Source: Dudresnaya verticillata (taxonomy: Eukaryota). Taken from it: DNA of 64,000 nucleotides. A program made the translations under genes and the position numbers. The notes below the pieces were generated by a model. It made no database searches, was not told where the DNA came from, and worked only from the letters and a program-made list of their open reading frames with translations. Where the stretch lies: assembly GCA_977862235.1 (NCBI GenBank), contig OZ374565.1:434001-498000 (forward strand). The letters run 5' to 3'. Positions 1 to 43,878 of this stretch are shown piece by piece (position 1 is the first letter of the stretch; every line of letters starts with the position of its first letter).

Positions 1-327
1 GAATGACTTTCCGTCCGTCCCCGACCCTCTGTGGGACGGCGGGTGTGAACACATCCACCTGTTCAGGTCTATCTGACTTGGAGCGGATCCCGCGAGCATG
101 CGGGCCACAAATACTGTGGGTCGCTTTGAGCCGTCCGGCTGTAGAAATAATAAAGGCAGCACGCTGGCGTCGAACGACGACGACGAGGGACAACACACCA
201 CTCCTCATCCACGCCGTGACTTTGCCTTCCACTTTGCCAACCCCAACTTTCTCTCTACCGACCTTTTACTTTTCCTTTTCGCGTTCGCGATCTACTGCTT
301 CGAAGGCAAAAGCGGTTACGCGTCACA
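1..327 (+). mobile_element. 3' part of a Gypsy element A-family LTR (cut by window start)
   Basis: Matches 44162-44488, ends ...GCGTCACA and has the same 3' flank AGAGC. Confidence 0.95.
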
Positions 328-1785
328 AGAGCAATGAGGAAGCGATGATTCTTTTTAATGAATGTGTACGGTGGTCTTATGCGTGGGGCTGTTCCCGACA
401 GGCAAGCATACCGGTGGGGTTTGGGTCTATCCTATGGAAGGGTTTGAGTTATGTGAGAACCTAAAGGGTTTTTTGGGGGACCCGAAAGGGTAAATTCGTG
501 CCTGCAGGCGTCTCGGATGGACGAGATTGCACCGACGATGGCGCAGAGATTACATGCGCCAAGTGATGGTAGCGAAAGGGCTTTCAGAGAATGGGCCAGG
601 AGTTGGGCTTCTTCGTCGAAAAATGGGTACCGAGGCGGGATGAGGAACGTCCAGACGTGCCACTGATTTCCGCTTTCCTCCTCTGCGGTTCGACAACTTC
701 AAGACAGGTGCTAACCGGTTTGCAGAGTACACAGGGCCAGGGAATCGCCCAGATAATTCCGCAAACCATTCTTGTAGCAGCGCTTCGCGCAATTCCCTCT
801 GCGCTCCTGTGTGTCGGGGTGCTTGGCACCAAAAACACGTTGTGTAGTCTTAACAGCAAGTGTTATTTGAGCAAGCCGGGAGCTCAGAAGTTTTGCTACG
901 TCAACAAGGTTTCGTAACCCGCGCGCATCATAGTGCCCTAAAACGTATGCTGAGCGTTAGAAAAGGATGTTCGATGCGGAAGAGGTCCCTGAGATCCTGC
1001 TAACGTGTGGCAGTGGTAACAAAATTGCCGTCAGGAACGCAAAAGCTGCTCTAGAAGTCACTCAGAGGGACACAGGTGTAGAGAAACCTCGGGGTAGAGG
1101 ACAGGAGTCCGTCTACAGTACGTTTAATGTGGTGAAGTGGGGTCGGCTGCGTACGAGCGCAGATGAAGTGCCTAGATACGCAGGGTAGTGTGCAATCGCA
1201 AGCGTAGGTTCAGATGCCGCAGGTCTTCACTTAGGCTGAAATGTATAGGACTATTGCCGATTGGCATCACAACACTTTACGTATTTGTACAGACGGACCT
1301 ACGCTGTATAGCGACTAACTTACCCAAGAGCCGGCAGCTCACACTGTTGCTCAGTCAGCAGTGGCTGCGACGCTTCCCCGGCTCGGGTTCACGGAGAGCG
1401 CCTCTGGGTGGCGCTTCGGCCAAAAGACACAGCCAATCATGGCGGTTTACATTTACGGTGCCGTCACGAAACGCAAACCGCGAAGCTCCGCACCAATTAC
1501 AAAGCGGAGCGCCGCTTAACATTAATTTTGTGCACTCTACAGTACGCACTGTACTCTAATTTATGGGAAAATTCCCCCGGTCAAGGACACGCGATGGACT
1601 CCGCGATAAGTTAGAGCGAGGATGGTATGCCGCGGCACGGAGGGGAAGGGTATTCGGTCAATGCAAAGTTTACTTAGGCGTTACAACGCGGAAAGGTCCA
1701 CTAGCTAATCGGGCGCTCCCCCACTCACACCAATCTACTATCCCTAGGGAGCGTCCGATGCGAGCACTACAATGAGGAAATGACG

Positions 1786-4116
1786 TCAGTCCGAGTCAGA
1801 GTCCATTAGGTCAATGACTTCGTTTGGGCGCAACGGCGGATTCGCAACGGGGCCTTGCCCTGGCATCATGGTCACGCGACGGACCTCGCGTACCATGCGA
1901 CGACCGCGGCCGCGCCGAGCTCCGACTCCCCGCGCCGTAACTTCACCACCCGCCTCGCTAGGCCCGGAATCTCCATCGCCAGACGGCGCGTCACCCTCCT
2001 GGACACCCATGTCCTCTTCCTAGAGCTCCTCCTTGAGCAGCAGCTCCGTCTTGACAATAACCTCTTGCGGCTCAGCCGCCGCCGGGGGAGATTCAACGGC
2101 GTTAGCAGGAAGGGTCAGCTCGAGTTGCAAACCATGGCCAGCGGGCACTTCTGGCACGGGTAGGTTGACCGTTACCTCCATGGGTGAAGAAGTCGGGGCG
2201 CTCTCCTCAACGGCTCCTACCGCCAGCTGCGAAGCTGCAGCGGTTGGAGAATTGGTATGCGGACCCGAGGTAGCGACGGAAGACCCTTCACGCGGAACAG
2301 CGGATGTATCGGCAAGCGTGCCCTCGCGCGGATCCGCACCCTGTCTACCACCGACTGGTGCCACGGGAGCACCCATACTTGGCAGCGAAACAGCGCGACT
2401 GTCTTGATGACCCAAGCCCAAACGGGAACGGCGCTGAAGTCGCGGGTCTCTTGAAACGGAAGCGGAAGCTGAGGCGCTCGGCGCGCTCGCCGCAGCTGAA
2501 GGATCTGCCACAGCGGAACCCAACACACTCGGCGCGCTCGCCGCAGCCGAAGGGCCTGGAGCCACGGCACTCGTCGGAGCTTCCTGAGCCTGCTCCGACT
2601 CCACGACGGTCTGCTGACCGACAGGCGGAAGCGCGGCTAACGACGCCTTCAACGCCTCGATGGGCCCCGGTGAGCTCACCCAGTTCGACTCATAGTTGCA
2701 AAGGACGTCTTCGACCCAATCCGCGAGACTGTAGAGAGTCAGATGGGTCACCTCCCAATGGACAGCCAAGCGGATGGCGAGACCTCGACGGTTGAATAAG
2801 TCCCGAATGGCGGCATCAGCCCTTGCGACGTTTCGCACTCTGGGTGCGTACGGACCCTGGGGCTGTCCCGACACAGTAGTGTCCATCGGCGGCACGTCAG
2901 CCGGAGTCGCGGGAGCCTCGCCGGAAGCACTATGCCAGTCTTTGGTGTAACCAGTCATGCGCTCACCGGTGTCAACGAGAAGCGTCTCACCTTCGGCGGG
3001 TTGCGGTTGCAGCAGATACTACGGTAGGAGAGGGTGCCACTGCACCGGGTCGAAGTCGACCCAATCACCACGGTCGTACACCGGCGTCACAAACCCGGTG
3101 TCCTCCGGAAGGTAGCGATTGCGCTTGCTCACACGACTCCAACGAATGCGTTCGACGAACACGAGGAGCGCCTCCAAATCCGTAGCGTCGACAGCTGTCG
3201 TGGTGAGTAGGCCAATTCCAAGTCCCCGGATCTCGGTGCGCAGACCTGCGTTGATGTAATACAAGTACCCCCGACGGGCTTCATACATGAAGGTCTGCGC
3301 CACCATCACCACCCATTCGCTACGGAAGATCATCCACAAGAGGCCATGATGATAGCTTTCGTGCATCATATCAAGGCCTCTATACGCCACGACTGGGGGT
3401 GTGCCGACAGGCATGGAGTAGGAAACTTCGTACTCACGATGATCCGTGGGAATAGGGACGTACTTCCCCGTGTAGAACTCGGGCTTGATGGCCACCACTT
3501 CTTGGCAGTGCGCCGGCACGAAGCACCCGGTCCGATGACGATGACGACGCTCGAAGCGAAGGAGCTCGCGAGACATCACTGTCTGCGGATTGTCCAATGC
3601 GTACTTGAAGTTGGACGTCTCGTCCCACCACGTAATGCGCGCCATCGTGAATGGATAGTTATCCCGACCGGGGCGGATGAGTGGTCGTTCAAAAGCGACC
3701 AACTCCAGGCTGTAGCCTCCCTTCGCGTGGAACTCAATCAGCTCCGGCATGAACTCCATGAAGGCTTGAGAGTGGTGCTCCACGTAACGTTGCTCGAAGA
3801 GGAAGCGCACCATCGCGAGGTCCCACTTGTGGTTCGTTGGCAACGGCGGAAGCGCGATATTGGTCCCTCGCAGGATACCAATTCGCTCACGAATGAGAAA
3901 CTCCCACGAGCGGGCTTGAGCGCGATGACGGCCATAACGGCGGATATCTTCACGACGCGCACCGGCGGTGGCCCGAATATGGGTGAGGTCCGTTCGGAGC
4001 AGCCAGTCGCGGCTCTTCGTGATAGACAAAGGCACACCTGCCGCATCAACGCCAAACCCGAGGACAGCCGAGCTAGAGCCCGCCTGCCCATACGGGAGGT
4101 TGGGAGTCGTCGCCAT
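1786..4116 (-). pseudogene. Antisense accessory ORF of LTR element B (~776 codons, two in-frame TAG stops), unknown function
   Basis: ORFs 3019-4116, 2020-2958 and 1786-2010 are all in one frame, separated only by TAG codons at 3019-3021 and 2020-2022. The N-terminal half looks globular, the C-terminal half is Ala/Ser/Pro-rich and ends EVIDLMDSDSD. It lies just 5' of the PPT and LTR at 4879-5692. Confidence 0.75.
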
Positions 4117-4606
4117 GCGGGCCGAAAAGAGTAGTGAAGCGGAGCGCCGCGCGGATGAGATCTTCTACTTGAGTTCTTCTCCCTGAAGCTTGAAAACTTG
4201 AAGGTCTTCTGCCTGAGGTCTTCTACCTGAAAGCTTGAGCCTGAGACTTGATGGTCTTCTCCCTGAGATTCTTGAAGGTGTAGCAACACCGGCACAACCG
4301 GCCGCGCCAACAAGGCGATGAGAAGCGACGGCGAAGCGCGCAGTCGCGTGAGCACCGCTCCGAAGCAGCTCGCGGAAGCGCCGCTGCGTACGACGCCGTG
4401 CAGGGAAGGGCGAGCGCGATTCGCGTTATGAAAGGAAAGACGCGCACGCCGCGTGGGAGTAATGAAGGATGAAGGCCGGAGGGCGACAAAGGAGGAGAGA
4501 GAAGGAAGCCGATGGCGCAGCGCAGCTGGGAACGTTGAAGAGCGTTGAGTTGCTGCGGGCTGTTGATGCCGAGACGTGAGAAGTCGCAATCGGGTTGCAA
4601 CCCTTT

Positions 4607-4618
4607 GCTTATATAGCC
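4607..4618 (-). promoter_or_regulatory. Putative TATA box for the antisense ORF
   Basis: Minus strand reads GGCTATATAAGC in GC-rich context, about 490 bp upstream of the ATG at 4116. Confidence 0.45.
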
Positions 4619-4891
4619 GCGCCGCCGCGCCAAAATTGGCTCACGCAAACTCGTGAGCCGCAATGCTCACGAGTCGCCGACGTCGAGACGGGCGTGCCCG
4701 CACACTGAGGTGATGGTCCGCGATGACACGCATGTAACCCGGGCCTGCACGGCCGCTGGCCCGACTTAATTCCCCACCGGGCGCGATACATAGACAGACG
4801 TTGGGCGCTCAACCGCTCAGGAAGGAGATTTAAGATTCAGAAACCGCCAATCATAGCCTCGCGGGCCGCTTCGGTCTTCAGAGGGGGGCTG

Positions 4892-5692
4892 TGTGGCAGT
4901 ATGGACGCTGTCAGCAGAAGGGCTTACAGAAGCGCACTTCTTTTCGCGGGACAGACTGTCCCTTAATCAGGACAGCTGTCCTTTCATCGCTGTACACGTG
5001 GATGACACTTGGGATACACGTGTGTACACGTGGACTTACAGCTGCACACGTGGCATACACGTGGCCTTGTAATGACGCCAGTTGGGCGTCTCGTATTGGC
5101 TGATTTATGACGCGCCGCTGCGCTCCTACTCACGGACGAGGAGCACCTCTGCGCTCAGGGTATCGACAGTGCAGCCGGGACCTCGGCTTGCGCACCGGCG
5201 CATCCGCCACCAAGTCCCCTAACTGGAATGCATTCCCACTTTTGACTTGTACTGACTGTACTAATCTTTGTATCTATAATCGTAGACTAACTTATACCCC
5301 CTTTTGGGCTGATAGAGTTTTCGGCTGTCAAGCCCTACTTATGGGCGCCGGAATAGCCGGCGCCCTCAGAATAAACACTCAGCGGAGTTGTCCGGGAAGT
5401 TTCCATCTTTTGGTCGCTCGGACGCTCCGCGCCTGCAGGGGTCGCCCAGTACAGGCCCGGACATCGTACGACAAGTACTCTACGAAACACCGGGTCGCAA
5501 CCTCTATACTTTCCTTCAGTCGGTCGCGCCGAGTCTTTACCTTGCTTCCGCACCCCCCCTTTCGGGTCATCAGGGCCCGCCTTTTCCAAGCCTCTACCAA
5601 TCCTCCCTCGAGCTACCACCAATTAGCGTGTGACATCGGACAGCTGTCTTTTCTTGTTCTTTGCTGTTTCTGGCCGCTGCCATACTGCTACA
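4892..5692 (+). mobile_element. 3' LTR of Gypsy element B (801 bp)
   Basis: Inverted termini TGTGGCAGTATGG...CCATACTGCTACA, preceded by PPT-like CAGAGGGGGGC (4879-4889). No partner 5' LTR was found. Confidence 0.88.
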
Positions 5693-6018
5693 GCTCACAC
5701 CGCGGAAGGGCAAGGCTAAGGTTGATAAGAACAACAGGTCCAAAGACGGTCAGAAAGGCAGTGCTACCGACCGGGGAAACTCCGTAAACAATGCAGGGAA
5801 GGACCGGGAACGTCCTGCGCCTATTTTTCTAAACGAGGTCTGTGCGAAGAAGTGGAAGCTCCATCCTGGAGGGGTTCGTAATTGCCCGTTCACCGACCCT
5901 GAGAAGGCTGAGGCCGTGATCAAGGAACACATTACCCGCAAGTGAGATAAGGCTGAGGAGGCAAGGCAGGTTCGCTTCGACCAACAAGACATTTATGTGA
6001 ATACTACGCTAATGGGAG

Positions 6019-6692
6019 TGTGGTGTAGTGAGCCGAGGCGCGCATGCGGCACGCCGACGGCGAGCGAACCGTAACGGGTGATGTGGCAATACGCCACGCT
6101 GATGATCTGGCAACTGTAATCGTGGCGGGTGTGTGCGCATTACTGTGCACTTGTCTGCATCGCTGTACTGTAAGTGGAGCGCACCAAACGTAGCGGAGTA
6201 TTTGTAGTCTTTATTCTTTATTTTTAGTGAGTCTGTGTACAGTGTGTAGAGTAGCGCGCCAGCCAATGAGAATGCTGCGCATGTCCGTGTCGGAGATTCG
6301 GACCAGCAGGGCCAATTCCACCATAGGACCAGACCACTAGGGTCCGGCCCCCACGGACCGGACCGCTCGGTGCCACCCTGACTTGTATATCAGGGCGGCA
6401 CCGCAGCGGCTCCTAAGGTAAAGGGGTAAGCAACCTTAGCCCAATCCTTTGCGGTTTTCCCCGCGCCGAGCCCGTTGCAGTCTACCACCACCACCGTTAC
6501 GGAGTCCGTCCCGGCACTTGTACCACCCCCTTGTCTGTTGCTTCCGAATATCCGTCTCGGTTAGCCGCTCGCTGTACTCCCGTTTCGGTGCGAACTGCTC
6601 TACCACCCCGTGGAGGTAGTGTTGCTCTCGTCCGTTAAGGAAAGTCAGGCCAGCTGTCCGTCTCGGAGTTCGTTGGTTTTCACTACACCACA
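6019..6692 (+). mobile_element. Solo LTR D (674 bp)
   Basis: Termini TGTGGTGTAGTG...CACTACACCACA with perfect TSD GGGAG (6014-6018 / 6693-6697). Internally similar to LTR F. Confidence 0.95.
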
Positions 6693-6818
6693 GGGAGCTA
6701 CATTCGCTGGGCTAGTGGAACGCACGACGTGTGCTGATGGCGTTTCAGACATAAATTTGATGCCGCCAGGACTGTATGCCACACTTCTAGAGAAGAGAGC
6801 AGACATGTCAGTGAAGAC

Positions 6819-7592
6819 TGTAATATAGACGTCGGGTCGATCTGACGTCTGGTACTTGCTGGTCCGAAGCCGCCAAACAGACCCGTCGATGGGTAGCTGT
6901 TGGGGTTGGTAGAGCGGTGTCGGCCGCGTGCGCCCCGCAGGTGCGGATCGACGACGTCGATGCCGAAGCGCGCACGGGGCGTACCGTACGTGGGTAGGCA
7001 GCGGCCGGATCCCAGCGTTCCTGTCGAAGGGCGGCACGAAGCCGACGGAAAGGAAAAGGAAAGGGGAAAGCCTAGCGAGGCAAGGTGAAAAAGGGAAACC
7101 GCCCGCTGGCGTACGGCATAGGGATCGAACCCGAAAAGGCTGGGGGCAAGCTTCAGCGCGAGCTGTTGCTTACCCGGTTTACTGAGCCGTCGATGGCCGA
7201 CGGTCTTAAATACCCTACACTATGTGCACTACGACTAATTCTACAGTAGGTGCGCCCCACAACACCAACGCGGGAGGTGTGCGAGCGCGCGCCCATACAC
7301 GTGTCGACACGTCCGGGTAACGGTTACCCGTGGGCGCGCGCGGGGCGTAACGGGCAGCGGCCCTCTCAACGGCTCGATGCCGGAGAGCGTCACAGGGGCG
7401 CGCCATGTGCGGCACGGCGCGTGGCCGCTGCCGGCAGCAATGCGGTCGACCGCTACTAATTCAACGAAAAAACGAAGGGCACGCTGCCCAACCACGACTC
7501 GCCAGCGGGCGTCATCGTGTGCACCCTTACAGTGCAGAGCTGCCAGCATACCTTACAGCCGCTGCTGGTAGGGTGCTGACAGCTATACTACA
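6819..7592 (-). mobile_element. Solo LTR E (774 bp)
   Basis: Termini TGTAATATAG...CTATACTACA with perfect TSD AAGAC (6814-6818 / 7593-7597); the protease frame resumes after it. Strand inferred from a TATA-hairpin-AGTAAA block resembling LTR 30768-31606. Confidence 0.93.
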
Positions 7593-9007
7593 AAGACGTT
7601 TGAAAAGACAAATAAGTTCGGGCTAGCAGCGTCCGACTGTCATGTCCAGTACAGTAAGGAGGTGTCTCTTGACACCGAACTCCACATAAGGCACGGTAAA
7701 TCACTGATGATACGGAACCTAAAGTGGTATGCGTCAGTCCAGAAAATGAAAGAGCCGTTTTTGGGACGCCCGATTCAAGAAGCCCTGGGATTAGATGCTA
7801 AGAAGATGTTAAAGGCAACGTGCGATAGGTACCGAGGGATGGTAGATGCTAATGATTTAGTAGAAAGCGAGGAGTACGTAGAAGGTTCGATAGCTAGGAT
7901 CCTGTCATCGAGACTCTTCCACTCGGACAAGGCAGCGACGGAGGATGATTCCGCAGCAGAAGAAGGGCATTCGATTGATCTTGGAATCGATACGCCGGAG
8001 GAGCTAGATGCAGCATTTAATAGGATGCTCAGGCAAGCAGAAGAGAATGGGATTAGTCAACCAGGATTGGAATATATGCGAAAATTGTTGGGCGAGTACT
8101 CTGACGTGTTCTGCGTAAGATTAGGCCTCGGGCTGCCAGCGGACGTGGAGCCAATGCAAGTACACATCAAGGAAGGTTTGGTCCCATATATTGCGAAGGC
8201 ACGGTGTTAGCCAACTGATCAACGTGCGTTCATGTCGAAGTTTATGAGCAGACTGATCGACTATGGTATGGCAAAGCCCAACCCGAATGCTGAATGGGCT
8301 GCGCCTGCGCTACTGGTCCCGAAGAACCCCCGGCGAAATACAGACTCACTTTCGATCTGAGACGAGTTAATCAGTGTACGAAACCCACGACGTGGCCAAT
8401 GCCACAAATACAGTCCGAGCTCATGGACTTCTCTGGGAGTGGATTCTTCGCGAGTATTGATTTCTGTAACGGATATTGGCAGATGCCGTTACACCAGGAC
8501 AGCCAGGCCTATCACAGTTTCCTGACACCTACATGGGCATGTCAGCCGACGAGAACCCTTCAGGGCGCCCAGAACGCCGCCCAAAACTTCCAGTCAAGGG
8601 TGGAACCGTGTTTCAGAGAGTTGAAGGAATTGCTAAAGGCATTGCTCGACGATTTTGCAGTACATAATCGGCCGGAGGCTGGTCTGATACAAACTCTAAG
8701 GTCATTCTTTGAAATATGCAGATAGAGAAACTTGAAGATCTCAGCAAGAAGACGGTATTATTCGCTAGGACACTGCGTTGGTGCGGATACGTTGTCGACA
8801 AGGACGGGGTGGAATGCGACCCGCGTCGGCTCAGCGGCCTGAAGGACGGGCACCCACCCGTCAATGCAGCAGAATTGTCTCAGTTTGTCAATTGTCTCCA
8901 ATGCATGAGCGCGTACATCCCAGACTTTGCGCAAAGGATCTTGTGCACAGATCTCGCCACTACGTGATGTACTAGAACGGTCTCAACTCCTTCAGGAGTA
9001 GACTACG

Positions 9008-11095
9008 TTACGGTCTTCTTCGGCGACGAGGTCGTGCGGTGGCCCCACGCCTTGATGGCTTCTCCACCCGGGGATTCTCTGGGCACAAGGACCCTGGGGT
9101 CCTCGCGCCCCTCTCGATCTCGTCAACGCCTACTGGTGTAATCTCGTCAGGGGGTGGACTGTCCAGTCGCCCCTGTAACGGATATACACCGGATGGAGTT
9201 CCCCACTCGCACGACAACGGAATCCTTGATGGCCCCTCCGTCATGGGGTACAACCTCGAGCGGGAGCGCATCGCGTGCCAGCTCGACATTTGCTCGTTGA
9301 TTAACCACACCGGCTCGGGGTCTTCTTCTGACGGGAAATAGGCCATCTCACATCCAGAGTTGAGCGGTGGCAACAACAGCAGGCCGTCTTCATCCCAATG
9401 GTAACCGGTAAACCCTGGGTTCTCTACCATTTGGTTTTCGCGTGGACCGTGAATGAAGAGTCGCTCAACACGCGCCAAAGGGTATTCGGTCCCCTCGACC
9501 AGCCGGGCTACTCCAACTTGGTGTATAAGCGCAACCACCTTGCCGGGAAATTTGAAGATTCGCCCACACTCGCCACCCTCCGGGTCCGTCCTGTTCCGCG
9601 GGTATGCTCTCCAGTCGGTCATCTTCGAATTGGCTCTCATGCCCCGGTAGGTAACCTGTAACCACGAGAAAAGGACGAATATTGCCCATTCCGCTCGGCG
9701 TATCCGCCCCAACACGGTCATCAGTGGATGGTCAGCTGACTTCTCCCCACCTGGGTGTGCAGCTTGCCAGTCGTGATGCTGTATAAACCGATTGGAGAAA
9801 TAAGCCACCACCGTCGGAGTTGGCACTGACAACCAACGGGTGACTTAGTACTCAGCCCTCCAATCCGGAGCGGTGCAGTACAGTCGACGATGCGCGCTCC
9901 CGGCGCCACCTGGAAAAACTCGTTCGTGTTCCAAGTATGGAGTATCACCCTTCTGAGGTGGCGCACGTCTCTACCCCGCAACAGGATCCGGTGTTCTTTC
10001 GCTGCGTCATCCGCCCACCGTTGCAGATTCCCAAACCAGTGGAAGCCTTGGTAGTACGGCTTCTCGTAGCACAGGAAGAAGACACGAACTGCAAGGTCTC
10101 GCAGTCGATGGGCCAGCGCCAGCAGCCGACACACCTTGTTGGGGTAGCCTTCCTGTTCCTGACACCTCAACCACAACGATGTCGCAACCGGTTGGAGTCC
10201 TCACTCTACAATTTGAGTGGATCCACCTAGCCCTCCACATCTCCTCACGCCGATTCGGGAACCACTTGTTGTTGATTTACCCACTGGAGTCCGTTACGGC
10301 GCTATAGCGACGTCCCGGGAGGTTTTCACCATCGTTTGCCACGAGCACCGCTACCGGCATGGGGAGGAGGACCATATCAGGCTCCTCTTCAGTACGCTGC
10401 CGCCGGCCGGTACGGTGATCATAGTCCCGACCCGGCAACGTTCTTTCATCGGTGTATCCCGTCGATTCCGCGTGCCCATGGTAGCTCCCTTGCGTTCCCG
10501 GCGTATATGGCAGCGAGCCCGACGGTCCGCCGCCTGCACCCATGTGGAGTGGGGGTGAGGCTACTGCACCTCCAACTTGCCCATACGGGGGACCCGGCGC
10601 GTACGTCTCGTATCGCCGATGCGGAGTTGCCCGACGATAGCCAAGGGACCCCATCGCGGTGTTGCCTTTCGAGGGGCCAAGCCGTTGTGCCCCCAGCCCC
10701 ACTTGTCGATCCGGAGGCGGAGTAGGCGTCGTTGGAGCCTCGCCACCATCACGCCGCCTCGGCACCCGCGGGCTTATCGCACGTGTCGGCAACGCCGGTG
10801 TTGCGCTCGTTGCAGCCACAAACTCCGGCATGGTGTCCGCGGGCTCGCCGCCTTCTCCTTCTTCTGCTTCCGGCCCAGGAGCCTCTCCCACTAAGGGTGT
10901 ATGCCGTGTCGGATGGAAGGGGCGCCGTGCGCGGTCAGTGTTACTGCCCGCCATCGCTAGCGGCACATCGGGTTGGACTCGAGCGTTTGTGGATTTGCCC
11001 GAGGTGGAGCGCACTGTTGGTGTTAGTTCCGCTGTTGGATACACCTGAGTGGAGATGCCAAAGACGTGCTGCGGCGCACGAGGACGTGGCGCCAT
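9008..11095 (-). pseudogene. Antisense accessory ORF of LTR element F (~690 codons, disrupted), unknown function
   Basis: ORF 10277-11095 reads in frame through one TAA into the ORF starting at 10240, then frameshifts at ~10176 (absent in copy 2) and at ~9840 into ORF 9008-9832. It lies immediately 5' of the PPT and LTR F. Confidence 0.65.
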
Positions 11096-11110
11096 TGAAG
11101 AAGGGGGGTC

Positions 11111-11791
11111 TGTGGTGAAGTGTCCGTTTCGGAGTGCGGACGACGGGCGAGCCGACGTGCGACCGTCGACAACCCGCGCTCTGCTAAGCGCGCGTCAAAA
11201 GCCGAAGCGGGAGTACAGCGACACAGTAGCACTGTATGCCCTGCTGGAGTCTGCGCTCACCACCAATCGGAGCCAAGTAGTTGATTTATTTGTAATTAGG
11301 TAATTGTAATGATGCTGTACAGTACGTAGTGTCAGCCAGCCAATAAGAATGCCGAGCATGTCCGAAACGTTGACCGGGACCAGTAGGACCGGACCCACCT
11401 GGTGGACCAGACCCATTGGGGTCTGGCCCACACGGACCGGACCGCGGGGCGTATCTCCCAGTATAATAATGGGTGGCCACCGCGAGTCCTACAGTAAACG
11501 GGTACGCAACCCTGGGCAAAGTGACTCACCCTAAGCCTTACCCTCATACTCCTTTTCGGTTTCCCCTCGCCAGCCCGGTGCACGGATTCGTCTTACCTCC
11601 GTCCCGGCGTAGCTGTCCTGTCACTGTACCGTCCTCCTTGTCCGTTGCGTCCTGTTACTCCTTACAGGTGTTGCCGCTCTAGGTACTCCCTTCGGTCTAC
11701 GAACTAAGCTCTACCTCCCCGGTGCCGTGTTAGATCACTCCTTCTTGGGATTGCCTGATCAAATCTCCTTAAAGGTGCGCCTTTCACTACA
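11111..11791 (+). mobile_element. 3' LTR of Gypsy element F (681 bp)
   Basis: Termini TGTGGTGAAG...TTTCACTACA, preceded by PPT GAAGAAGGGGGG (11098-11108). Related to solo LTR D. Confidence 0.88.
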
Positions 11792-11820
11792 GCACATCAA
11801 GCGAAAACGTTTTGGGAGTG

Positions 11821-12463
11821 TGTAGTAGTATGGCCCGTCAAGGCAGAAACCCGCCAACCGGCAAGGACAGCTGTCCTGACGGTGCACAACACACTAGCTT
11901 GGGTAGCTCGGGAAAATGTTGGTAGAGACTTTGAAAGGCACAGAGCCTAAGGGAAAAGGGAAAAAATGGGCGGCGCCACCCAGCTCGCACAGAGCAACCG
12001 TCGTGTGGAGGCAAGGCTCGTAAAGCACCTGAAAGAGAGGTTACGGTGAGTCCGTGAATTCCAGAAAAAGGGTAAAGACCCAAAACCCACCGTGGGTTCT
12101 ATTCAGGAGGCCCCTGCTACTCAGGAGCCTATTAAGTATACAGAGCCGAAAATGCTCTTACCTCCTGTGAGCTATTCTAAGCTATTCTAACTGTCATTAT
12201 TAATCTAATTGTACTGTTGTCAGTTATAAATACGGATTAGTGGTAGTACCGCGTCGGGACGTGTGAGCGGCCACAATAAATTACCCAATGGCAATTTGCC
12301 ATCAAATTTGGTGCCAGCAGGGACGCCAGCGAGGAGCATCGCCCTTGCAGCACACGGTGCTTGTGCGCGCCTTACAGCTTGATGCGCGTGGCCGTCTTAC
12401 ACCTTAACGCGCACAAATGACTTACAGTGCGCCAGCACTTCTGCTGCGGCTCATTCTTCCACA
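11821..12463 (-). mobile_element. Solo LTR G (643 bp), B-like family
   Basis: Termini TGTAGTAGTATGG...TTCTTCCACA with near-TSD GAGTG/GAGGG. Shares blocks with 28203-28928 and with the reverse complement of LTR B. Confidence 0.8.
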
Positions 12464-13192
12464 GAGGGTTGTAGAACGGGGAATGCAGAATCCGTATTAA
12501 GACAGCATGCATATACAAACGGGCTGTGCTGCGGAGAAGGACGAGGCTACTCAATACTGATACGGTAATTGATATTTTTTGACGGTAGATCCTCCATTTG
12601 TATGCTTTGCTGGGCCCTGCAACCCATTATATTACTTTTGGATAGCTTAAACAAACAACCGGGTAGACAACCCGAACACTCAATTTAGGAGTAGCTTAAT
12701 CAGGTAGTGCCTGGCCCCATTCCTGGGTGAGACCTTCTATTTTACCCTTTTCCTAGTATATTGTACAACATTTAGCCTTTCGCTACAGTACTATAAAGCT
12801 GCAGTGAATCGGGGAGCTGAAAACTTCCCGGCACCAAGAATGTTATCAAGAACACCAACCTCAGAAGCTTCAGCAACCCGCCGTCGCAGCCGCTACCCCG
12901 GCACGATACGCCCCAGCCCTCGGTGTGTGTCTCGAGCTACCGAGTACACACCGTCGAATAGGCCGATTATTATTTTTACAAGGCCCACCGGTCCGCCCAT
13001 CGGACCAACTCCAAGTCGATTCTACGACAGCCACGTCTTTATTAAAATCCAGAGGCAATAATTACATCTTTTGAATGGCTCCTGTCATCCCCATCAGTTC
13101 CTGACAACTCCTGTTGTGGCTGCGCCACTCCTAACACGCATCATGAATTTTTATGCGCGACCACTGTACATACACGTATACCATCAACAGGT

Positions 13193-13399
13193 GTGGCGTT
13201 TGTCTCGTCAGGTTCCGACGACGGATCAGTTCATGTGTGGGATTTGCGATCTCAAAGCCTATTGCTGGAGCGGAGGACGATTCACGCGCTGCCTTCAACC
13301 TGTGCCTTATGGAACCCGGTGTACCAAATGCTCACGACTTCACGCCAAAACGTTCTGTTTTGGTTGCCGGAAGGGCCGGACTCCTCTCCCGAGTACTAG
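13193..13399 (+). pseudogene. WD40-repeat gene fragment
   Basis: Translation AFVSSGSDDGSVHVWDLRS is a typical WD40 blade end. No intact upstream frame. Confidence 0.6.
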
Positions 13400-13684
13400 G
13401 TTGCTATATGTCCGAGGTTCGTGGCATGTTGATTCGTAGACCTACTGCTGTATCAAGTGTGTAGAAACTGTTGCCTCGAAAGCTTACTGCCAACTTCTCA
13501 TTGTCGATCGAGAATCTGTCGAACAAAACTGGCCCTGTTTTTATAAAGGCGTCATCGCCCCAAACTGTACAGATTAAGACGGTATGTCACGTTTCACCTC
13601 AACTACAACTTCTTCCTTGTTCTGGAAGCAGCTTCCCATCACATGGAAAGCTACAGCATACGGTCATTCCTTCTGCGCTTCTTA

Positions 13685-16600
13685 CTAAGAACTAGGCTTC
13701 ACACTCCAATGGACATAGTCGCGTGCCTGGTCCTTAACTAGAGCACGCTTCTCCTGGTCACCAAACTCTTTCTCAAAGTCCAACCACTTCTTGAAGACGA
13801 ACTTCATCTTCTTCGAACTGAGTTCTAATGTCGTACATCTTTCGAACAGTTTCCTGGTTACTTCCACACTCTCAGTGTTTCCGCCTTCGAGGTCTCTTCT
13901 GCAGTAGCTTGTCTGCATTTCCAAGTAGATACTCCACAGATCTAACCTCTTTGGAAAGTTGCCGACCAGGGACTCAAAAACTGTTCTACCACGTTCAGAT
14001 GAGCCAAACTTGTACTCAAACTGCGCGAACTTGCATATGACAGCGACATGTTTTCGCTTCTCAAGGCTTTTCAATGCTTTCTCTAGGCATTGTCGGGCTC
14101 CGGAGATATTCCCAGAACTGAAGCGGGCGTTTCCAAGTGATATCCACACCTTCTTTGAACCTCTGAATCGGCGACTGGCTCTCCGAAGGACTTCATCGGC
14201 CAGGCCAGTGCTCGAGGAACGTAGCACAGCTGCAGCCTGCATGTGAAAGCCCTTCATATCAGTGACACGCGCGCACCCGCGATCGAATACGCGAAACACG
14301 GCGGCGCCTCTCTTCGGACCAAACGCATCCGTAACGGTATCGCTTGTGGAATTTGATGCTCCAAACTGAGCTTCCAAGTTCAAATAAGCAATCCATACAT
14401 TCATTTGTCAGTTTCTTTTTGGAGACTTATCGTCTCCAGCGCTCGTTCGGCGATAGATCTCGCCTTGTTAACCTGAGATAGAGACCAACAAAAAGCCATG
14501 TATGGAATCCACAAAACCGATGAGTTCGGCTCTCCGACGAGTAGTCGTTCAAAATCCTCTGCTGTCTCGGGGGAGTCTAGGTTATTCGCAAGAGCCTCCT
14601 CGCGCATATTTTCGCTGTCTCTGTCGCCTCCTGTCGTTTTTCTCCCTTTTGTCCCGGGACTTGCGTTTTGTTTGCTCTCCATGACCTTCGTTTTCACCCT
14701 CCAACTCTGGTTCCTCGTCTTTCTCTTCACGCTTTGTCGCCAGTTCGTCATCTTCGGCAAAGTTGAAGCCTTGTCGAACTCTAAGTGGGGCAATTTGAGA
14801 TTTTCTTCGCCTTGAACAGTCGCTAGTTCGATGTCGCCACTCTCGACAGTACAGACATTAGCGCCGGAGCCCTCATCTGAGCCAGACGAACCCTCCAGTT
14901 CACTCTCTCTGTCATTGAATGGTTCGTCTCTGTCAGCATTGCTGTCTTCTCCATCCAAGATTCTCGGAACCATGTCAACATCTTCAGCACTCCTTAAGGC
15001 TGCTTGACGAGAGTTTTGGTTACTCTCAATAAGGGCATTCATATGGTCTTCATCAAGGCCAGCGGCTTCGAAGTAACATGTTTTGGTGCCAACCTTAACA
15101 CCCTTTTCATCGACTTTGATGACAATTGCGTTAACCGTCTGTCCTACACACCATTCCTCATTCGGGTTTTGAATGAAGCGATCCTGATCTACCTCAATTT
15201 TGTGCAACAACGCAGTAACTTTTTTGGATAGTTCAAGCACCGCGCCATAGTTTCCTATGTGCTTGACAGTCCCCGTCACCTTGGTTCCCTCCTGCAAGTC
15301 TTTGACAGCTGAATTCTCTTTCAATTTCTTCGTTGGGCGCTTTCGCAAGATGAGTGGAATACGTATCTCCCCGTTGTTACTCTTGGGTTTGCCGGCCCCC
15401 TTCAACAAGCATACCAACCAGAAATTATTCTTCCGGATCCTTGACATAGCCATCCGCGAGGTCACAAAGCAAAACCTGAGCAGATGCATTTCTTCCGACC
15501 GCTACAAAGTACCCTTTCTTGCTCACAACTCTAACAAACCCACGCATTTTCGCTCCCTCTTTGATCAACGGCATGGTGGCCTTCGTGACGAGTAGATCTC
15601 CACCGGAATCCGTGTCACTGGGTCTCACGGAAAGGAATATTGCCCCATCGGCTGAATCGGAATTCGAATCGAGCCCAACCTTCCGAACCCGAACGACGTC
15701 ACCTTTCTGAACTGTTTGCATCTTCTGAGCGACCTCACCGAAGTTTACCGCCATGTCACACAGACCTACGGTTCCAAGGGCGATATTTTTCGCCGTAGCA
15801 TCACGAGTGAACCACGGGATCTCCACTCGGAGCCCAACTCCTTGCATCACGGCTTGTACTATTCCGTGGAAGAACCCAGGGTCTTTGCCGTTCTCGGAGA
15901 GAGCGCCCCAAATCCGACCATTTTCTTTCTCCTCGACTTCGGTAACCATGCACACTACTTCAGATGCCACCTTTAAATCGATAGGGTCCCCTTGGACCCG
16001 GCAGCTTACATCCATACAGCATATCGATGCAGACGCGTTCACTGCCACCCGCGTATACGACTGGGTGCGGTCCTCAGACTTGCCAGAATTAGATTTGCGT
16101 AGGCGGGACGACAAGTGGGTTACGAACCCTACCACTTTGCTCCCTTTCGCAATCGCGTGATGCCTCGCTCGTTCTTCTGAAAGGGAAAGTTCAACCACCA
16201 CTGGGGTATTCTCTTCACCCTCGCACATGCGACGGCGAATCCCAGAAATGAAGGCATGTTCAACACGGCTTCCGTCCTTCGGTAGAACAAAACGAGTACT
16301 CAGATTGGCAGGGAGAACCCCAAGAGGCATCCCTAATGTTTCCTCCGGAGTGACAAAAGAATGATTGGTCCTGTGCAGATGCCCTACAACACCGCGCGCA
16401 ATCGCCACGAAGCTATGCAGCGGGAAAGTTCGATTTATCTTGCCTTTGATGTGTCTTCCTAGAACCTTCTGCTCCTCTACTAAAGATTGTCGAAGCAGTG
16501 TCAACGTATCGCCAGTTCTGTCATCGTTGTGTTGGGTTACCTTTTGAGAATGTCGTTGCTGACTCGCCCGAAAACATTTTCAGTCAATCATAACCAAGTT

Positions 16601-19600
16601 GCTTCGTATTTCTGCCTTAACCTTGTCGAGCACTGTGCAACGCACAGACGCGCCGAGAGTAATTGACAGCTTGACTGATACAGTGTAACGCCCTGCGCTA
16701 TAAGCGCATCCTTCCGCTCTGCGAGAAAAGTAGAGAGCGTACTAGAACCTATCTGGTCTAGTTGTCTGTGAGCCGTTGGAGTAGCCCAGCACAGGGTGAA
16801 AGGTCGCAGGTTCGAGTCTCCGAGCGGGAGGCTCGAGCTCTTTTTCCTGACGCGACGCTGCGACTCCGAAACTCGCTACAACAGGCGGACTTAGGGCGAA
16901 AGCAATAGCGCTCCTAGTCTTCGATCTAGCGACAGCTAGGATCAAGTAGGCACTCTTAACAAGCAGTATGGTTGCGCTGAATGGGCTTCCTGCATTCAAA
17001 ATGGACTTTCCCGCCCCTGCAACCACCTCTTCCTGTCTGGAAAGGAGGTCGATAACACCATAAAAGGGATCCACGTCCAAGACTCGGACGTTGTCTTCCT
17101 TTGATGCTTCACTGCGTTTGGTCTTCTCAGAAAATGCTGATTCTGTGCCGATGCAGGTAGCCAGAGGAAGAGCTTCATCTCTCATCGCTTCAGAGTCTGG
17201 CTGAGTGACATCAAGACATACACCGACTGCAGACTCACCAGCTGTCTGCAACTTGTAAATCACACCATAGCTGTGTTCTGCATGCACTCGCGCTTGCTCG
17301 ATTCATCCAATTGCAAACCCCTTCAACACACCTGTCTTGCCAAGGAGGTCTTGCCATTTCTCCAGTGAGCTGAACAACGACAAAGTGTCTGCCTCAAGAC
17401 CAGAAAACCCCACATTGGAGAGTCGAAGGGATAATGAAAAACGCTGTTTCTTCTCGTCGATATTGTCCACCACAGCTGCCACACTATTGTGAATCTGCAA
17501 AGCTCTAGAAGGGTCACTTAAAAAATGGTCGGCAATGCGAGAGATACGGGTGAAACCTAACGAATCCCCAAGGAACGCAACTATCGCCCCAGTACCCAAC
17601 AGCGCCTTAAGGTAGCCACGCAAAACTGGCTTCTGCTGATCGGTTGTCGTCCTTTCAACAATGCGCTTCACATCATTACAAGATTTTGGCAATAACCCTT
17701 GTGCTGAAGCGGTCTTCAGGCTTGGTTTGAGGGTAAGAACAGGCCTGTCTTCCGAAACAGAAAGGACCATCAGGTCTGACAAAGTGATAGGAGAACCTCT
17801 TTCTCCTTTCTGGGCTTTGCCAAGAAGGCTTAGAACTTCCTTGACTAGTTGCGGGGCAATCCCGGGGACGTCTGCAATATGTCCAAACGGCAGGTAGCAT
17901 TCCACACTGCCGTTAGAGCTTCCCGATTTTCCTTGCTCGGTGGCCTGGTCTTGAGGCCCACCCTTTGCGGCTGTGGTAACAGAATTAGATGGTACCTGTA
18001 CCGACACTATGAAATGTTTCGCTTGCTCATCTGCAGAGGTGATGTGGCCACCTACAACCTGACCCAGGCTAAGGGTCTTTTGTTGCAGAAGAGCCTGAAG
18101 CACCACGCAAATCCATAGAGATAGTGATGCGCCTTCGCGGAGAGTCAATCTTAGTTAGTTTGACAAACACTGTCTGTCCGACAGGGTATACTTCTTTGAT
18201 ATCTGCCAACTGCTCAGCTTGAGTCTTGTTCGTGTCAATGCAAAGCTCGCGAATTGGTGAAAGACCTGCCATGTCTTCACAAAAGCAACAAGAACAGACC
18301 CGAAATCCAACACTTTGATAACAGATCCCGTGAAAATGCCTTTGGTCGATCAGGTTCAACCAAGTCATCTTCGGATGATCTCCTTTTGCTAACGACAAGT
18401 GACTTCTCGGCCTGCTCGAAGGGAGTAAGAAGTGGATACTTCGGGGAAAATAGGGACTTCTTCGCAGATAAATAGGTCTTTCCCCTTCCCACGTCGATAC
18501 CAATGGCTCTGCAACGTATCGTTGCTCCTATCCGCAAATTCTCCAGCATGGCCATTCGCTTCGGGGTCATCGGTACAATAGAAAGGTGTGCTGCTTGGGT
18601 AATACCAAGCAGGTGCGAGTCACCAGCCACAGCTACCGTAACGGCACCCATCGTGGTGTGACTCATCACCTTGCAATCATACAAAGCGCCGACCTCAATC
18701 TCCTCAATGGAAAGAGCTTTGCGTGCCAGAATACTTCGTCGGAGGACGATGTTAACAAGCCCATCGAATCGTGGCACCGAAATAACCCTCGCACCATCTT
18801 CAACGATCATGCCGGGGTGGTACCTTGATTCGAGTTTGACATCTTTCGAGTCTGAAACTCTGCTTATGTGAGCAAACACTGGTACAGTACGTGCATTCCA
18901 ATATTATCCCCAGCGAATTTGGCAGTGTCTTCATCTTTAAGAGTTTCTTCTGCTCCTTCCGCACCGACATAGCTCATTATGAGGCCAGACCCGGGTTTCA
19001 CTCTTTCGACTTTCAGCCGTTTCATGAAACTGCCTATCTTCCACGACTGCGGCACTTCCCGAGGGCGTAGTTCGTCGACCAGCGAAGGTAGCAGTGAAGA
19101 GGCAATGCGCTTCTGCGAGGGGTCCACGTAGAAAATCCGCGCCGTTACCAGCTTGCCGACGTCAACATCCCATGTCCCATCCGCCCTTCGCGGAACATGG
19201 GACGCATCAACAGACAACTTGGACACCGAAAACGCAGTCAAGGCAACCCCCCAGGACCCTCCTTAACGACGCGTGCGGGAACTACCATACCGGCGGTGAG
19301 CTCACTGTACGTAAGCCCAGCGGTATCTTCAACGCACGCCTTGATAACCTTCTTCTTCAGTTCCGACACATTGACGACCACGGGCAACACTGGACCGTTC
19401 TTCCGTTTCTTCTTCCGAGATACATCCGCTTCCACAACAACTTCCACCGGACTACCCATGCGCAATTCCCCCTCGCTCTCGTCGAACGGAAGAAAGGCCG
19501 TGTGCGGCACACCAGACCCGAACGTCAATACATAACCATGGTCCTCAACCGAGCGCACAACTGCGTACAGCGGGGACCCGCGGCGCGTGACGCGCTTTTC

Positions 19601-19953
19601 GGACAGGCCGGCATTAACGAGCCCCGGATTCATGGAAACAGTCAGGGCGCGCTTTCCATGGGCATTATGCTCGTTCGAAACAACAGCCACACGCACAGTC
19701 TCCCCCGTGCTGACCGCCTCGCATAGGGCGAAGTGGACTGCGCAGAGAATTCTGTTCGGGTGACTACTGCGAGGAGAGTGACACCGGGGGCAAGATGGGA
19801 GTGTCTCAGCGAGAGGCCGGTGCGGGTTACAGGGAGCGGCGGGTCTGCGTGGTCCGCGGACGGATTTCGTCGTGCGCGTCGGGCGCGTACGCTTGGACAG
19901 AGGTCGCCTTCGGACGAGGGCCTCGGTGCTGGCTTGTTGCGTGATGGCGCCAT
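13685..19953 (-). pseudogene. RRP5: rRNA biogenesis protein RRP5 (tandem S1 domains plus C-terminal HAT/TPR repeats), multiply frameshifted
   Basis: C-terminal motifs PETAEDFERLLVGEPNSSVLWIPYMAF, KARSIAERALETI, NVWIAYLNLE, KFAQFEYKFGSSERGRTVFESLVGNFPKRLDLWSIY and KKMKFVFKKWLDFEK; S1 motifs VVRSVEDHGYVL and TGTVKHIGNYGAVLEL. Split into at least 8 ORFs. The ATG at 19953 (MAPSRNK) is tentative. Confidence 0.92.
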
Positions 19954-20701: not shown

Positions 20702-22450
20702 TTAAGCAAGCTTGAATACCACGCAGTAATTAGGAGAGTTCGAAGTTCCTCGGACACGGAAAATAACTTTCAGGCACTTCCTGTCAATCCTCTCGAACGG
20801 CCGCGGGTCAAAACGATTCGGCACAACCGCGTACTGCCCATAGCGGGAAGATGCCGCAAATAGCTTCCCTTTCGCTCGAGTCTCCTGGCCATTGGGTTTC
20901 ACAAATACAGTGCGCAATATTGCAGAGCGCAACACCCCGGGATGCCTCCCATCGAGCAAGTTCACAACAGGCGGTGTGAACTTCTTCTTGAATATCGGCT
21001 CACCAGGAATCAGAAACGCTGGAATCCCAGTCGGGAATGTATGGAATCGCAGCAAGCAGTGGTAGCTTGCGCTTCTACATGCGTCTTTAAGCGGTGCGGG
21101 TGTTGGGGCAGCAGCTCCCAAACAAAGATCTCCAGCCAACTTATTCACTTGCGAAGAGAGCACTGCGAATGAAGGTGCACGCAGAGCGAAGCTGGGACTT
21201 GATGCCAGATCTTCTAGGTACTTTCCGGCCACTCCGTTTCCAATTCCGACAGTAAGAATTGCTATTCCGTGACTCTTCACTGACGCTGATATATTGGTTA
21301 CCCGAGGAACGGCATTGTCCCTTCCGTCTGTTACCACGACGAGAAGTTTCGTCCCTTTCCTTGGGTGCAGATCATTGAAACATGCCTGAACACCAGCAAA
21401 CATGTTCGTGTATCCAATCGTCCCCTTCAGAGCTGCGATAGCAGGCATGAACTGTTGCAATCTCTGCATAGTCATAGTGCGGACCGATTTCGCCCGAATA
21501 TTGAAGGTGTGAGCAGAGTAATAAGCCATAGGACTCCTCAAGGCGACCTGCCTGGAGGTTTCCCGCACAAATTCCTTCTCCATTTCAAGTTCAGCGGCGC
21601 TCATCGATCGACTGTTGTCAATTGCGAAACAAACGTTGTCGACGGGGCAAGGCGTCGGTGATGGCGACACAGATGGGGTGACAGAGGTTGATGGGGTGGC
21701 AGAGGTTGATGGAGTCGGTGATGGCGACCCAGATGGGGTGACAGAGGTTGATGAAGTGGGTGAGGCAGTTGGTGTAATTGTAGGCGTAGGGCTTGTTGTC
21801 GGGCAGGGAGAAGTTATCGAGACTTGGCACGAAGCCTTCGTAGCTTGTTGAATGACAGAAGCCAAGTTTCCGAACCTTGCGTTGACGTAGAATGCCGGAC
21901 TGCTGGCAACTTGTTTCAGAAAGGCTTCGCTTATGCCACTGCCGATGCCTATTGTGACAATGGCAATACCACTGGTAGTCTTCATGGAATTGGCAATAGA
22001 TAGGGTTGGAAAAGGACCACTATCAACTCCATCAGTCAGGGCCACAACCACACGGTTTCCGACTGTTCCAACAAGCGACCTACAGACTGCTAAGCCCCTC
22101 CCAATGTTCGTTCCTCGAGCGATTTGGGTTGTGCTCTGGATTGCATTCTTGAAACTGGAAATGCTTGAGGTACTAGTAGACACCGTGCGAGCACTATCTG
22201 AAAAAGAAGCTGCGCTGTACTTAACAATTGCCCCTTGGTTTGCAGCAGCAACAGCATCAGCTAACGATGAAACAAAGCCCTTCTGCTCTAGAAATTGGGG
22301 GGAAGTGATCGATCCACTCTCATCCAATGCGAAACACACATGTTGAATGGAACAAGTCGTTGTCCCCGTTCCGCATGGCGGCGGAGATGCAGCTTTTGCG
22401 CTGGAAATGATTCCAAGCAAAACACAGAGCAAAGAAAAGAACGTCTTCAT
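20702..22450 (-). CDS. Secreted protein with two von Willebrand factor A domains and a Ser/Thr/Pro linker (582 aa)
   Basis: Signal peptide MKTFFSLLCVLLGIISSAKA; vWA1 CFALDESGSI...LTDG; vWA2 CFAIDNSRSM...VTDG (MIDAS DxSxS); mucin-like linker; Cys-containing C-terminal domain. Single uninterrupted ORF. Confidence 0.92.
   Translation of the reverse strand: MKTFFSLLCVLLGIISSAKAASPPPCGTGTTTCSIQHVCFALDESGSITSPQFLEQKGFVSSLADAVAAANQGAIVKYSAASFSDSARTVSTSTSSISSFKNAIQSTTQIARGTNIGRGLAVCRSLVGTVGNRVVVALTDGVDSGPFPTLSIANSMKTTSGIAIVTIGIGSGISEAFLKQVASSPAFYVNARFGNLASVIQQATKASCQVSITSPCPTTSPTPTITPTASPTSSTSVTPSGSPSPTPSTSATPSTSVTPSVSPSPTPCPVDNVCFAIDNSRSMSAAELEMEKEFVRETSRQVALRSPMAYYSAHTFNIRAKSVRTMTMQRLQQFMPAIAALKGTIGYTNMFAGVQACFNDLHPRKGTKLLVVVTDGRDNAVPRVTNISASVKSHGIAILTVGIGNGVAGKYLEDLASSPSFALRAPSFAVLSSQVNKLAGDLCLGAAAPTPAPLKDACRSASYHCLLRFHTFPTGIPAFLIPGEPIFKKKFTPPVVNLLDGRHPGVLRSAILRTVFVKPNGQETRAKGKLFAASSRYGQYAVVPNRFDPRPFERIDRKCLKVIFRVRGTSNSPNYCVVFKLA
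21646..21790 (-). repeat. Coding tandem repeat of the S/T/P linker (60-bp unit with 18-bp subunits)
   Basis: GTCGGTGATGGCGAC(A/C)CAGATGGGGTGACAGAGGTTGATG occurs twice, 60 bp apart. Confidence 0.85.
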
Positions 22451-22587
22451 GCTACCTCTTAAACAGATGGAGAGGTTGCGCTTACGAATTAAATCCCAGA
22501 AACGAAGCCAACACTCTGTGTGTCGGCCGATAACAGTCTGAACACTTTCCCTGAAGCCAGAGCCCCTTGAGTTCAGAAGGGTCTTAG

Positions 22588-22599
22588 TCTTATATACTG
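22588..22599 (-). promoter_or_regulatory. Putative TATA box of the vWA gene
   Basis: Minus strand reads CAGTATATAAG about 140 bp upstream of the ATG. Confidence 0.5.
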
Positions 22600-27239: not shown

Positions 27240-27849
27240 TGTTACACATAGCGCTCGCACTGTTTGGGAGTACTCCCTACAATGGGATCCCAAAGCGCAC
27301 ACGCGACGCTGCAGGGTAATTCCCTAGAATGGGAGCCTGCTGGGGAACGCACTGCTGAACAATGGCAGACCCCACGGCCGATCATGGCTATCGCGCACAG
27401 ACCTGGTGAACCTGCACAAGGCAGAACTGCCGGTCTGACAAGGCGAATTTGCGTCCCTTCGGACAACCCTCTACATCTTATTGGCTAACGCTCAGGGTCC
27501 CCTGACAACAGGGTTCAGACCTGAATGACTTTCCGTCCGTCCCCGACCCACTGTGGGACGGCGGGTGTGAACACATCCACCTGTTCAGGTCTATCTGACT
27601 TGGAGCGGATCCCGCGAGCATGCGGGCCACAAATACTGTGGGTCGCTTTGAGCCGTCCGGCTGTAGAAATAATAAAGCCAGCACGCTGGCGTCGAACGAC
27701 GAAGACGAGGGACAACACACCACTCCTCATCCACGCCGTGACTTTGCCCTCCACTTTGCCAACCCCAACTTTCTCTCTACCGACCTTTTACTTTTCCGTT
27801 TCGCGTTCGCGATCTACTGCTTCGAAGGCAAAAGCGGTTACGCGTCACA
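27240..27849 (+). repeat. 5' LTR of element A
   Basis: TGTTACACAT...GCGTCACA; about 9 substitutions versus 43879-44488. Confidence 0.96.
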
Positions 27850-27899
27850 GTAATTACTTTTCCCCGGAGTAGTTTCGTTTTTGTTGACGAAGCGAGATT

Positions 27900-29665: not shown

Positions 29666-29737
29666 TCGAAGCAGGACTCAGAGAAGCGAGAAAACATCGG
29701 ATCTGTAGAACTACCTACCGAAGGAGAACACACTTCA

Positions 29738-31606: not shown

Positions 31607-31608
31607 TC

Positions 31609-41144: not shown

Positions 41145-41149
41145 AGCAC

Positions 41150-43838: not shown

Positions 43839-43878
43839 CAAGCTTCTTTGTTCACGCTGAACAGAAGCTTGGGGGCAC

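Follow-up and report, generated by a model that had tools for sequence, protein, structure and literature searches.

Two open reading frames (ORFs) on the minus strand of the Dudresnaya verticillata genome raise the question of whether two dissimilar pieces of retrotransposon debris carry the same antisense gene. The ORFs, named B (3022-4164) and F (9011-9844), lie in a 64,000-nt stretch of this genome (assembly GCA_977862235.1, contig OZ374565.1, positions 434,001 to 498,000 of the forward strand), hereafter called the window. A first-pass annotation made from the letters alone had described them as apparently homologous, unrecognised proteins encoded antisense to two different families of long terminal repeat (LTR) elements, each just 5' of a polypurine tract (PPT) and a 3' LTR. 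Both minus-strand ORFs exist, and all the motif strings quoted for them are present. Judged by profile comparison, B and F are members of one protein family. On balance we lean towards reading them as decayed copies of a conserved gene, likely an antisense accessory gene of Ty3/gypsy-type elements located between pol and the 3' LTR.

The relationship between B and F does not emerge from direct comparison. The best BLASTP match between them has an expectation value (E) of 0.32, which is not significant, and tblastn gives zero cross-hits at E<=10. When the two are aligned by the Smith-Waterman method under three gap settings, 35, 161 and 412 of 500 shuffled sequences reach the observed score. 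For sub-regions chosen post hoc the corresponding counts are 15, 36 and 11 of 1000. Word-based searches of protein databases with B and with F found nothing, and the same type of search with a 150-sequence alignment of the family returned solely P0141, an already known member. The only route that found the family was a full HMMER (phmmer) scan of B against 1.84 billion representative proteins. It yielded 151 relatives at E<=1e-3, 58 at E<=1e-10 and 4 at E<=1e-30. The relatives match residues ~190-381 of B, and some of them match residues 27-377.

A family profile was built from B's relatives alone, with B and F excluded, and run on the 1384 six-frame ORFs of the window. This profile recovers B, a duplicate of B and F (E 7.8e-5), and the next unrelated ORF has an E of 6.6. 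When F is read through its stop as X, it scores 31.7 bits (E 8.8e-9, 1384 sequences). A 240-residue stretch of F, likewise with the stop as X, scores 36.9 bits, a value that none of 3000 shuffles reaches (maximum 7.6); the reversed sequence scores -1.9. Single relatives make the same connection: F matches P0109 at E 3e-7, and F2, a second minus-strand frame upstream of F, matches P0151 at E 8.3e-5 in two colinear stretches (both against 150 sequences). We accept the homology because of the profile and these intermediate sequences, not because of the pairwise alignment. The claim of the first-pass annotation is therefore upheld by the family profile, and the aligned pair with shuffled-sequence statistics, at 35 of 500, does not carry it.

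The similarity between the two proteins is limited in extent. F aligns to only 67 profile columns, and 20 of 66 profile-aligned residues are identical in B and F. The family signature consists of ER..R, YEV, TPPVV.Y, EW, ARxG and GDWV.FD..W, all of which are found in B. F retains the middle part of this signature; the Glu of YEV is a stop in F, and the C-terminal motifs are weakly aligned.

The relatives, counted as clusters at 50% identity, define a mostly helical two-part core of ~340 residues, usually accompanied by a long tail rich in Ala, Ser, Pro, Gly and Arg. The core is covered by 84 of 150 relatives, and the tail has a median length of 150 aa among them. The N-terminal part has a median length of 103 aa, and 148 of the 150 sequences begin with Met. 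The strongly conserved residues, in B numbering, are E205, R206, R209, E222, Y235, P239, E246, P256, Y261, W277, E283, W284, L301, W342, P361, G366, D367 and D372. All 30 relatives that were looked up come from Logan, ENA or JGI environmental assemblies, none of them from plants. Some clusters contain 9 members at an identity of at least 90%, on separate contigs of up to 21.7 kb, which is the behaviour of a repeated element. No DNA locus of a relative was found in metagenome_contigs (queries P0028 and P0006), in genome_contigs (P0028 and P0025) or in viral_contigs (P0025, P0028, P0016 and B).

No protein library recognises this family. Pfam contains no family at E<=0.1 for B, the in-frame tail of B, F, F2 or F3 (an open stretch upstream of F2, in the frame of F), and none at E<=0.001 in any of the 40 relatives scanned. 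NCBIfam and PHROG gave no match for 11 of 11 proteins. The best hit of a sequence-profile search against the PDB, gyrase A at E 0.25, is noise. The view that the family is conserved and unrecognised is thus borne out by the 151 relatives, the lack of a library or structure match and the confident structural model described below; a match to an already described transposable element domain was looked for in Pfam, NCBIfam, PHROG and the PDB, and none was found.

AlphaFold2 with the 150-row alignment produced confident models. B has a predicted local distance difference test (pLDDT) score of 84.9 and a predicted template modeling (pTM) score of 0.84, and the core alone has a pLDDT of 94.0 and a pTM of 0.89. 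The models are mostly helical with two or three short strands. Foldseek against the PDB gave a best E of 5.1 for the whole B model and of 1.7 for the core alone, the latter with kinase C-lobes at TM<=0.21. Against BFVD the best E was 7.7 for the whole B model. VIA-align against 48,161 chains gave a best Z of 3.1 for both the whole and the core model, with no match at Z>=5. A Z of 3.1 is unusual for models as confident as these (m2a43ba84864b and ma8da37ab572d), as VIA-align quotes Z 7-8 as typical, and 14 for helical models, even without a clear match. The predicted fold is possibly new, and an absent structural match is no proof of this.

Several candidate identities were considered. A protein atlas gave a GNAT acetyltransferase as a weak lead for B (score 0.76) and nothing for F, which has a low recognition score. 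This lead was dropped because no Acetyltransf Pfam match was obtained and the predicted fold is mostly helical. The GNAT fold is of the mixed alpha/beta type, and no GNAT structures are found among the fold matches. Transposase_28 (PF04195) was rejected as well, as it has no Pfam match in B, its tail, F, F2 or F3 (E<=0.1) or in 40 of 40 relatives (E<=0.001). No capsid or Gag structure is present among the Foldseek or VIA-align matches (best Z 3.1), and no Gag family was matched in Pfam.

ORF B has 381 codons, and its first Met lies at 4116-4114. The stretch from this Met to the residue before the stop (3022-4116, minus strand) is marked as a protein by the 151 relatives, the AlphaFold model, the conserved residues and the codon GC content, which is 0.61/0.46/0.70 by codon position, that is, GC3 (the GC content of third codon positions) > GC1 > GC2. 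It comprises an N-terminal helical part (~residues 40-170, 3655-4047) and the conserved core (~residues 190-381, 3022-3597). A TAG at 3019-3021 separates B from an in-frame, Ala/Pro/Ser-rich tail of 332 codons (2023-3018, minus strand). In a comparison with 150 sequences, this tail matches the region of P0019 beyond its core (E 4.5e-4) and, as far as its sequence indicates, was likely once part of the same protein as B. B is nearly whole except for the TAG before its tail.

ORF F has 278 codons, and it cannot be taken as an intact ORF in view of its four in-frame stops (10277-10279, 10007-10009, 9971-9973 and 9845-9847) and a frame change near 9890-9898, where the reading switches from F2 to F. 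The family core with an Arg-rich end is found at 9011-9970 on the minus strand by profile match, and the in-frame TAA at 9845-9847 takes the place of a Glu that is 95% conserved in the family (E246 in B numbering). F2 (9724-10200, minus strand) contains the N-terminal part and the start of the core in the other frame, as recognised by its match to P0151. F3 (10280-11095, minus strand) is a Pro/Gly/Ala/Arg-rich N-terminal region that starts from the ATG at 11095-11093 within an ORF open over 10280-11194, and it is divided from F2 by a stop and a frame change. The frame of F is open upstream into the LTR without an earlier Met than 11095-11093. Low-complexity sequence makes up the C-terminal region of B (A16% P11% S11%) and the N-terminal region of F (P14% G12% A10% R10%), as had been described. 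All copies of B and F in the window carry stops or frame changes and are dead.

The link to a retrotransposon is seen at F. A protease-like and reverse transcriptase (RT) remnant of Ty3/gypsy type occupies three frames of the plus strand at 7572-8964 (RVT_1 at 8294-8722, E 5e-9). It resembles the pol of a complete gypsy-type element at 27237-44488, with 31% identity over 182 aa (E 2e-25) and 48% over 66 aa (E 5e-18). The PPT GAAGAAGGGGGG lies on the plus strand at 11097-11108, one base from F's ATG and two bases before the 3' LTR. This LTR (11111-11796, plus strand) starts with TGTGGTGAAGTG, ends with CACTACAGCACA and is without a matching target duplication of its own. F is therefore antisense to the plus-strand RVT_1 and located between pol and the PPT/3' LTR. 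The adjacency of ATG, PPT and LTR confirms that F sits immediately inward of the PPT and 3' LTR of a gypsy-type element on the plus strand.

The LTR type of F is corroborated by a solo copy at 6019-6692 (plus strand) with perfect 10-nt inverted ends, TGTGGTGTAG and CTACACCACA, and a 5-bp target duplication, GGGAG (6014-6018 and 6693-6697). The solo LTR is 64% identical to 11136-11721 over ~600 nt (E 3e-40). A reading in which 6019-6610 and 11111-11721 form the two LTRs of a single element was rejected: 6019-6692 is a separate solo insertion because it has inverted ends of its own and GGGAG on both sides.

The surroundings of B are less easily assigned to an element. Beyond B's ATG, the plus strand shows a purine-rich run (4124-4144), a short tandem-like stretch and then a block bounded by 7-nt inverted ends, TGTAGCA/TGCTACA (4279-5692, strand not fixed), which starts 163 nt from the ATG. 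This block may be what the first-pass annotation called the LTR of B. A repeat present at 11821-12270 and 28203-28591 recurs, diverged and in reverse orientation, in the right 490 nt of the block. The three copies (11821-12270, 28203-28591 and, in reverse, 5204-5692) are 350-490 nt long and have a common terminus, TGTAGTAG or TGTAGCAG, and a purine-rich middle; the repeat is possibly the end of another LTR family. For the proposed LTR with a PPT beside B, neither a second copy nor a pol gene nor an orientation could be established. The sequences flanking B and F are dissimilar, as had been stated. The claim of two different LTR families is plausible because of these dissimilar flanks and the low identity of the two proteins, and it is not established for B. 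At 1128-1139 lies an exact copy of the 12-mer TGTGGTGAAGTG that starts the LTR at 11111, with nothing similar behind it (z 1.8 and -0.7 versus the F LTRs), and CACTACA occurs at 1766-1772. They may belong to the end of a third LTR, unrelated to the others, whose integrase recognition end is the same.

Several observations weigh against an antisense accessory gene. The antisense arrangement is seen at one locus, F, and the element at this locus is defective. RNase H and integrase gave zero matches in 1-14000 and none downstream of the RT of the F element, and the RT similarity stops ~45 nt short of F's stop codon. With RNase H and integrase lacking and the RT ending so near F's stop, 8965-9007 could be a junction between two pieces of unrelated origin. 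Around F, no pair of LTRs from a single insertion flanked by a target duplication was found, and the LTR at 11111-11796 has no 5' partner in the window. At B, the ORF translations scanned from 1-7500 include no retroelement domain and thus no pol, no clear PPT was found beside the ORF, and the putative LTR has no partner when 4165-6052, 328-2020 and 1128-2019 are aligned against the rest. B could accordingly lie antisense before a 3' LTR or in sense after a minus-strand LTR. The complete related element at 27237-44488 has no family ORF. The GC3 also differs, being 0.70 in B, 0.63 in F and 0.52-0.56 in the RT. An accessory antisense gene of LTR elements, as proposed in the first-pass annotation, is hence supported at the F locus, and at B no pol, partner LTR or orientation could be established for it. 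Much of this would also be expected under the main rival explanation, in which the family gene belongs to a mobile element of its own or is a host gene in many copies. B and F would then be dead copies that came to lie beside LTR debris among nested repeats, and insertions and deletions would have put F in antisense by accident. The absence of pol and of an LTR partner at B, the breakpoint so close to F's stop in an element lacking RNase H and integrase, the related element without the ORF and a GC3 unlike that of the RT all favor this explanation, as does the patchwork nature of the region, with its solo LTR, three copies of another repeat and the isolated LTR-start 12-mer at 1128. However, F's ATG sits one base from the PPT, and its frame is open into the LTR without an earlier Met, so that the end or 5' untranslated region of an independent element has no room. 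Moreover, neither B nor F is framed by terminal repeats, and the fold has no transposase, recombinase or capsid match, although the latter is weak evidence. We consider such an independent gene possible but rather unlikely.

The orientation of F also bears on another explanation, in which B, and possibly the family generally, takes the place of gag, in sense orientation, in LTR elements of the minus strand, and the block at 4279-5692 is a minus-strand 5' LTR that lies upstream of B. The right end of this block is indeed reversed relative to the other two copies of the repeat; of these two, one is situated within the 5' leader region of the complete plus-strand element (27237-44488). No convincing plus-strand PPT precedes 4279, and the family is largely helical, like capsid proteins. 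At F, however, the plus-strand PPT, the LTR start and the RT fix the opposite orientation. The minus strand after B is without pol, the fold matches include no capsid or Gag structure, and Pfam gave no Gag or zinc-knuckle match. This explanation therefore appears improbable to us. The last alternative, that B and F share their motifs by chance and are merely open frames of GC-rich DNA, could appeal to the BLASTP value, the 35 of 500 full-length shuffles, the empty word-based searches and the low atlas score of F. It is refuted by the profile and intermediate-sequence results and is at odds with a confident structure prediction from a 150-sequence alignment, and we give it almost no credence.

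If B and F derive from the antisense accessory gene that we favor, transcription of this gene would run inward from a promoter within the 3' LTR or beside it, by analogy with maize Grande gene23 and with HBZ of human T-cell leukemia virus (HTLV). Its product might influence the cycle of the element in trans, as a regulatory, nucleic-acid-associated or chromatin-associated factor. E205, R206, R209, E222, E246, E283, D367 and D372 may form a putative binding or catalytic site. B itself would be the remnant of the 3' end of another such element. A bolder version of this proposal, which we think doubtful, is that selection has maintained a structurally new domain in 150 or more diverged lineages of eukaryotes, uncultured and probably marine, and that it is a retrotransposon antisense gene and the protist counterpart of plant TRP28 and HBZ. 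The invariant Glu/Asp/Arg cluster would then be a new enzyme site or nucleic-acid-binding site that controls expression of the element or serves to escape silencing.

Antisense extra ORFs between pol and the 3' LTR have been described in maize Grande, rice RIRE2, Silene Retand, Phaseolus PvRetro13 and Botrytis Boty, and that account mentions no established function for them (PMC7264820). The plant ORFs termed aORF-3R (Grande gene23, RIRE2, Retand and PvRetro13) share with F the strand and the position between pol and the PPT/3' LTR. As described there, their proteins are likewise without an assigned function, and non-autonomous copies exist (PMC7264820, PMC11963269). The Retand ORFs differ in that they mostly encode Transposase_28, which is given for 97% of Retand clusters (PMC11963269), whereas B, F and 40 of 40 relatives are without a Pfam match. 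A further difference is that the present relatives come from environmental assemblies and the arrangement is seen here at one locus.

Two known genes outside plants can also be compared with the present family. According to the source consulted, brtn is encoded in antisense by the Boty-like gypsy elements of Botrytis cinerea and is thus an extra antisense gene in a non-plant LTR retrotransposon (Zhao et al. 2011, cited in PMC7264820). HBZ of HTLV-1 and APH-2 of HTLV-2 are described as retroviral proteins encoded in antisense, with transcription from the 3' LTR (PMC7264820, PMC11963269); like F, their genes start at the inner edge of this LTR. Because the antisense gene starts at this edge, its promoter would lie in the LTR, and by working analogy its product may have a regulatory role. 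The gene brtn is small, and by description only it differs from the present ~340-residue core with a long tail. HBZ is a bZIP protein, whereas no bZIP or other Pfam domain is found in B, the tail of B, F, F2 or F3. Searches of open-access text showed no account of antisense ORFs in the LTR elements of algae or protists, and one may exist in print elsewhere. What we describe is a new protein family in a known arrangement, that of the antisense extra ORF.

Among LTR retrotransposons, extra genes in antisense have been recognised in plants and in one mould, and no function is established for any of them. The family found here is large enough, at 151 clusters, for evolutionary analysis, its confident predicted structure matches nothing solved, and at least one locus ties it to the 3' end of a retrotransposon. 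If this tie is true genome-wide, the phenomenon would extend to another branch of the eukaryotes, and the role of such genes could be probed with a tractable protein that has intact relatives and whose conserved residues are clear. If the link fails, the family remains an uncharacterised, widespread domain with a possibly new fold.

The window also contains a 44,161-bp unit repeated head to tail, 1-19840 corresponding to 44162-64000 at 99.85% identity with 30 differences. B and F each occur twice in the window because of this duplication. The second copy of B and its tail (46184-48325, minus strand) has an extra stop, TGG>TGA, at the conserved W376 (47198). The second copy of F, F2 and F3 (53172-55256, minus strand) has a further 1-nt deletion, at position 10175 in terms of the first copy. 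Of the 30 differences, the repeat part (12.6 kb) holds 26 and the host-gene part (7.2 kb) the other 4, a skew that, in such small numbers, is consistent with neutral decay. The junction of the duplication lies inside a 613-bp LTR (27237-27849 = 43876-44488 = window start 1-327). The 44,161-bp repeat may have arisen by a recent segmental duplication, or the assembly may have produced it.

Two host genes lie on the minus strand. The gene at 13685-18903 encodes an RRP5-like rRNA-processing protein with S1, OB_RRP5 and HAT repeats in long exons, and that at 20705-22633 encodes a protein with two VWA domains. The GC3 of these genes is 0.48-0.54, below that of B and F (0.63-0.70). No tRNA gene was found in the window to compare with a primer-binding site.

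The complete gypsy-type element at 27237-44488 contains, in this order, RT, RNase H, an integrase zinc domain, an integrase core and a 3' LTR. No gag homology was found between this element and 1-14000. The element is interrupted within the RT by an insert of ~10.4 kb (30768-41144), the ends of which are long inverted repeats (435 nt at 98% and 1372 nt at 99%). Within the insert lie an ORF for an rve integrase (36113-37585) and arrays of tandemly repeated units, 51 nt and 130 nt long.

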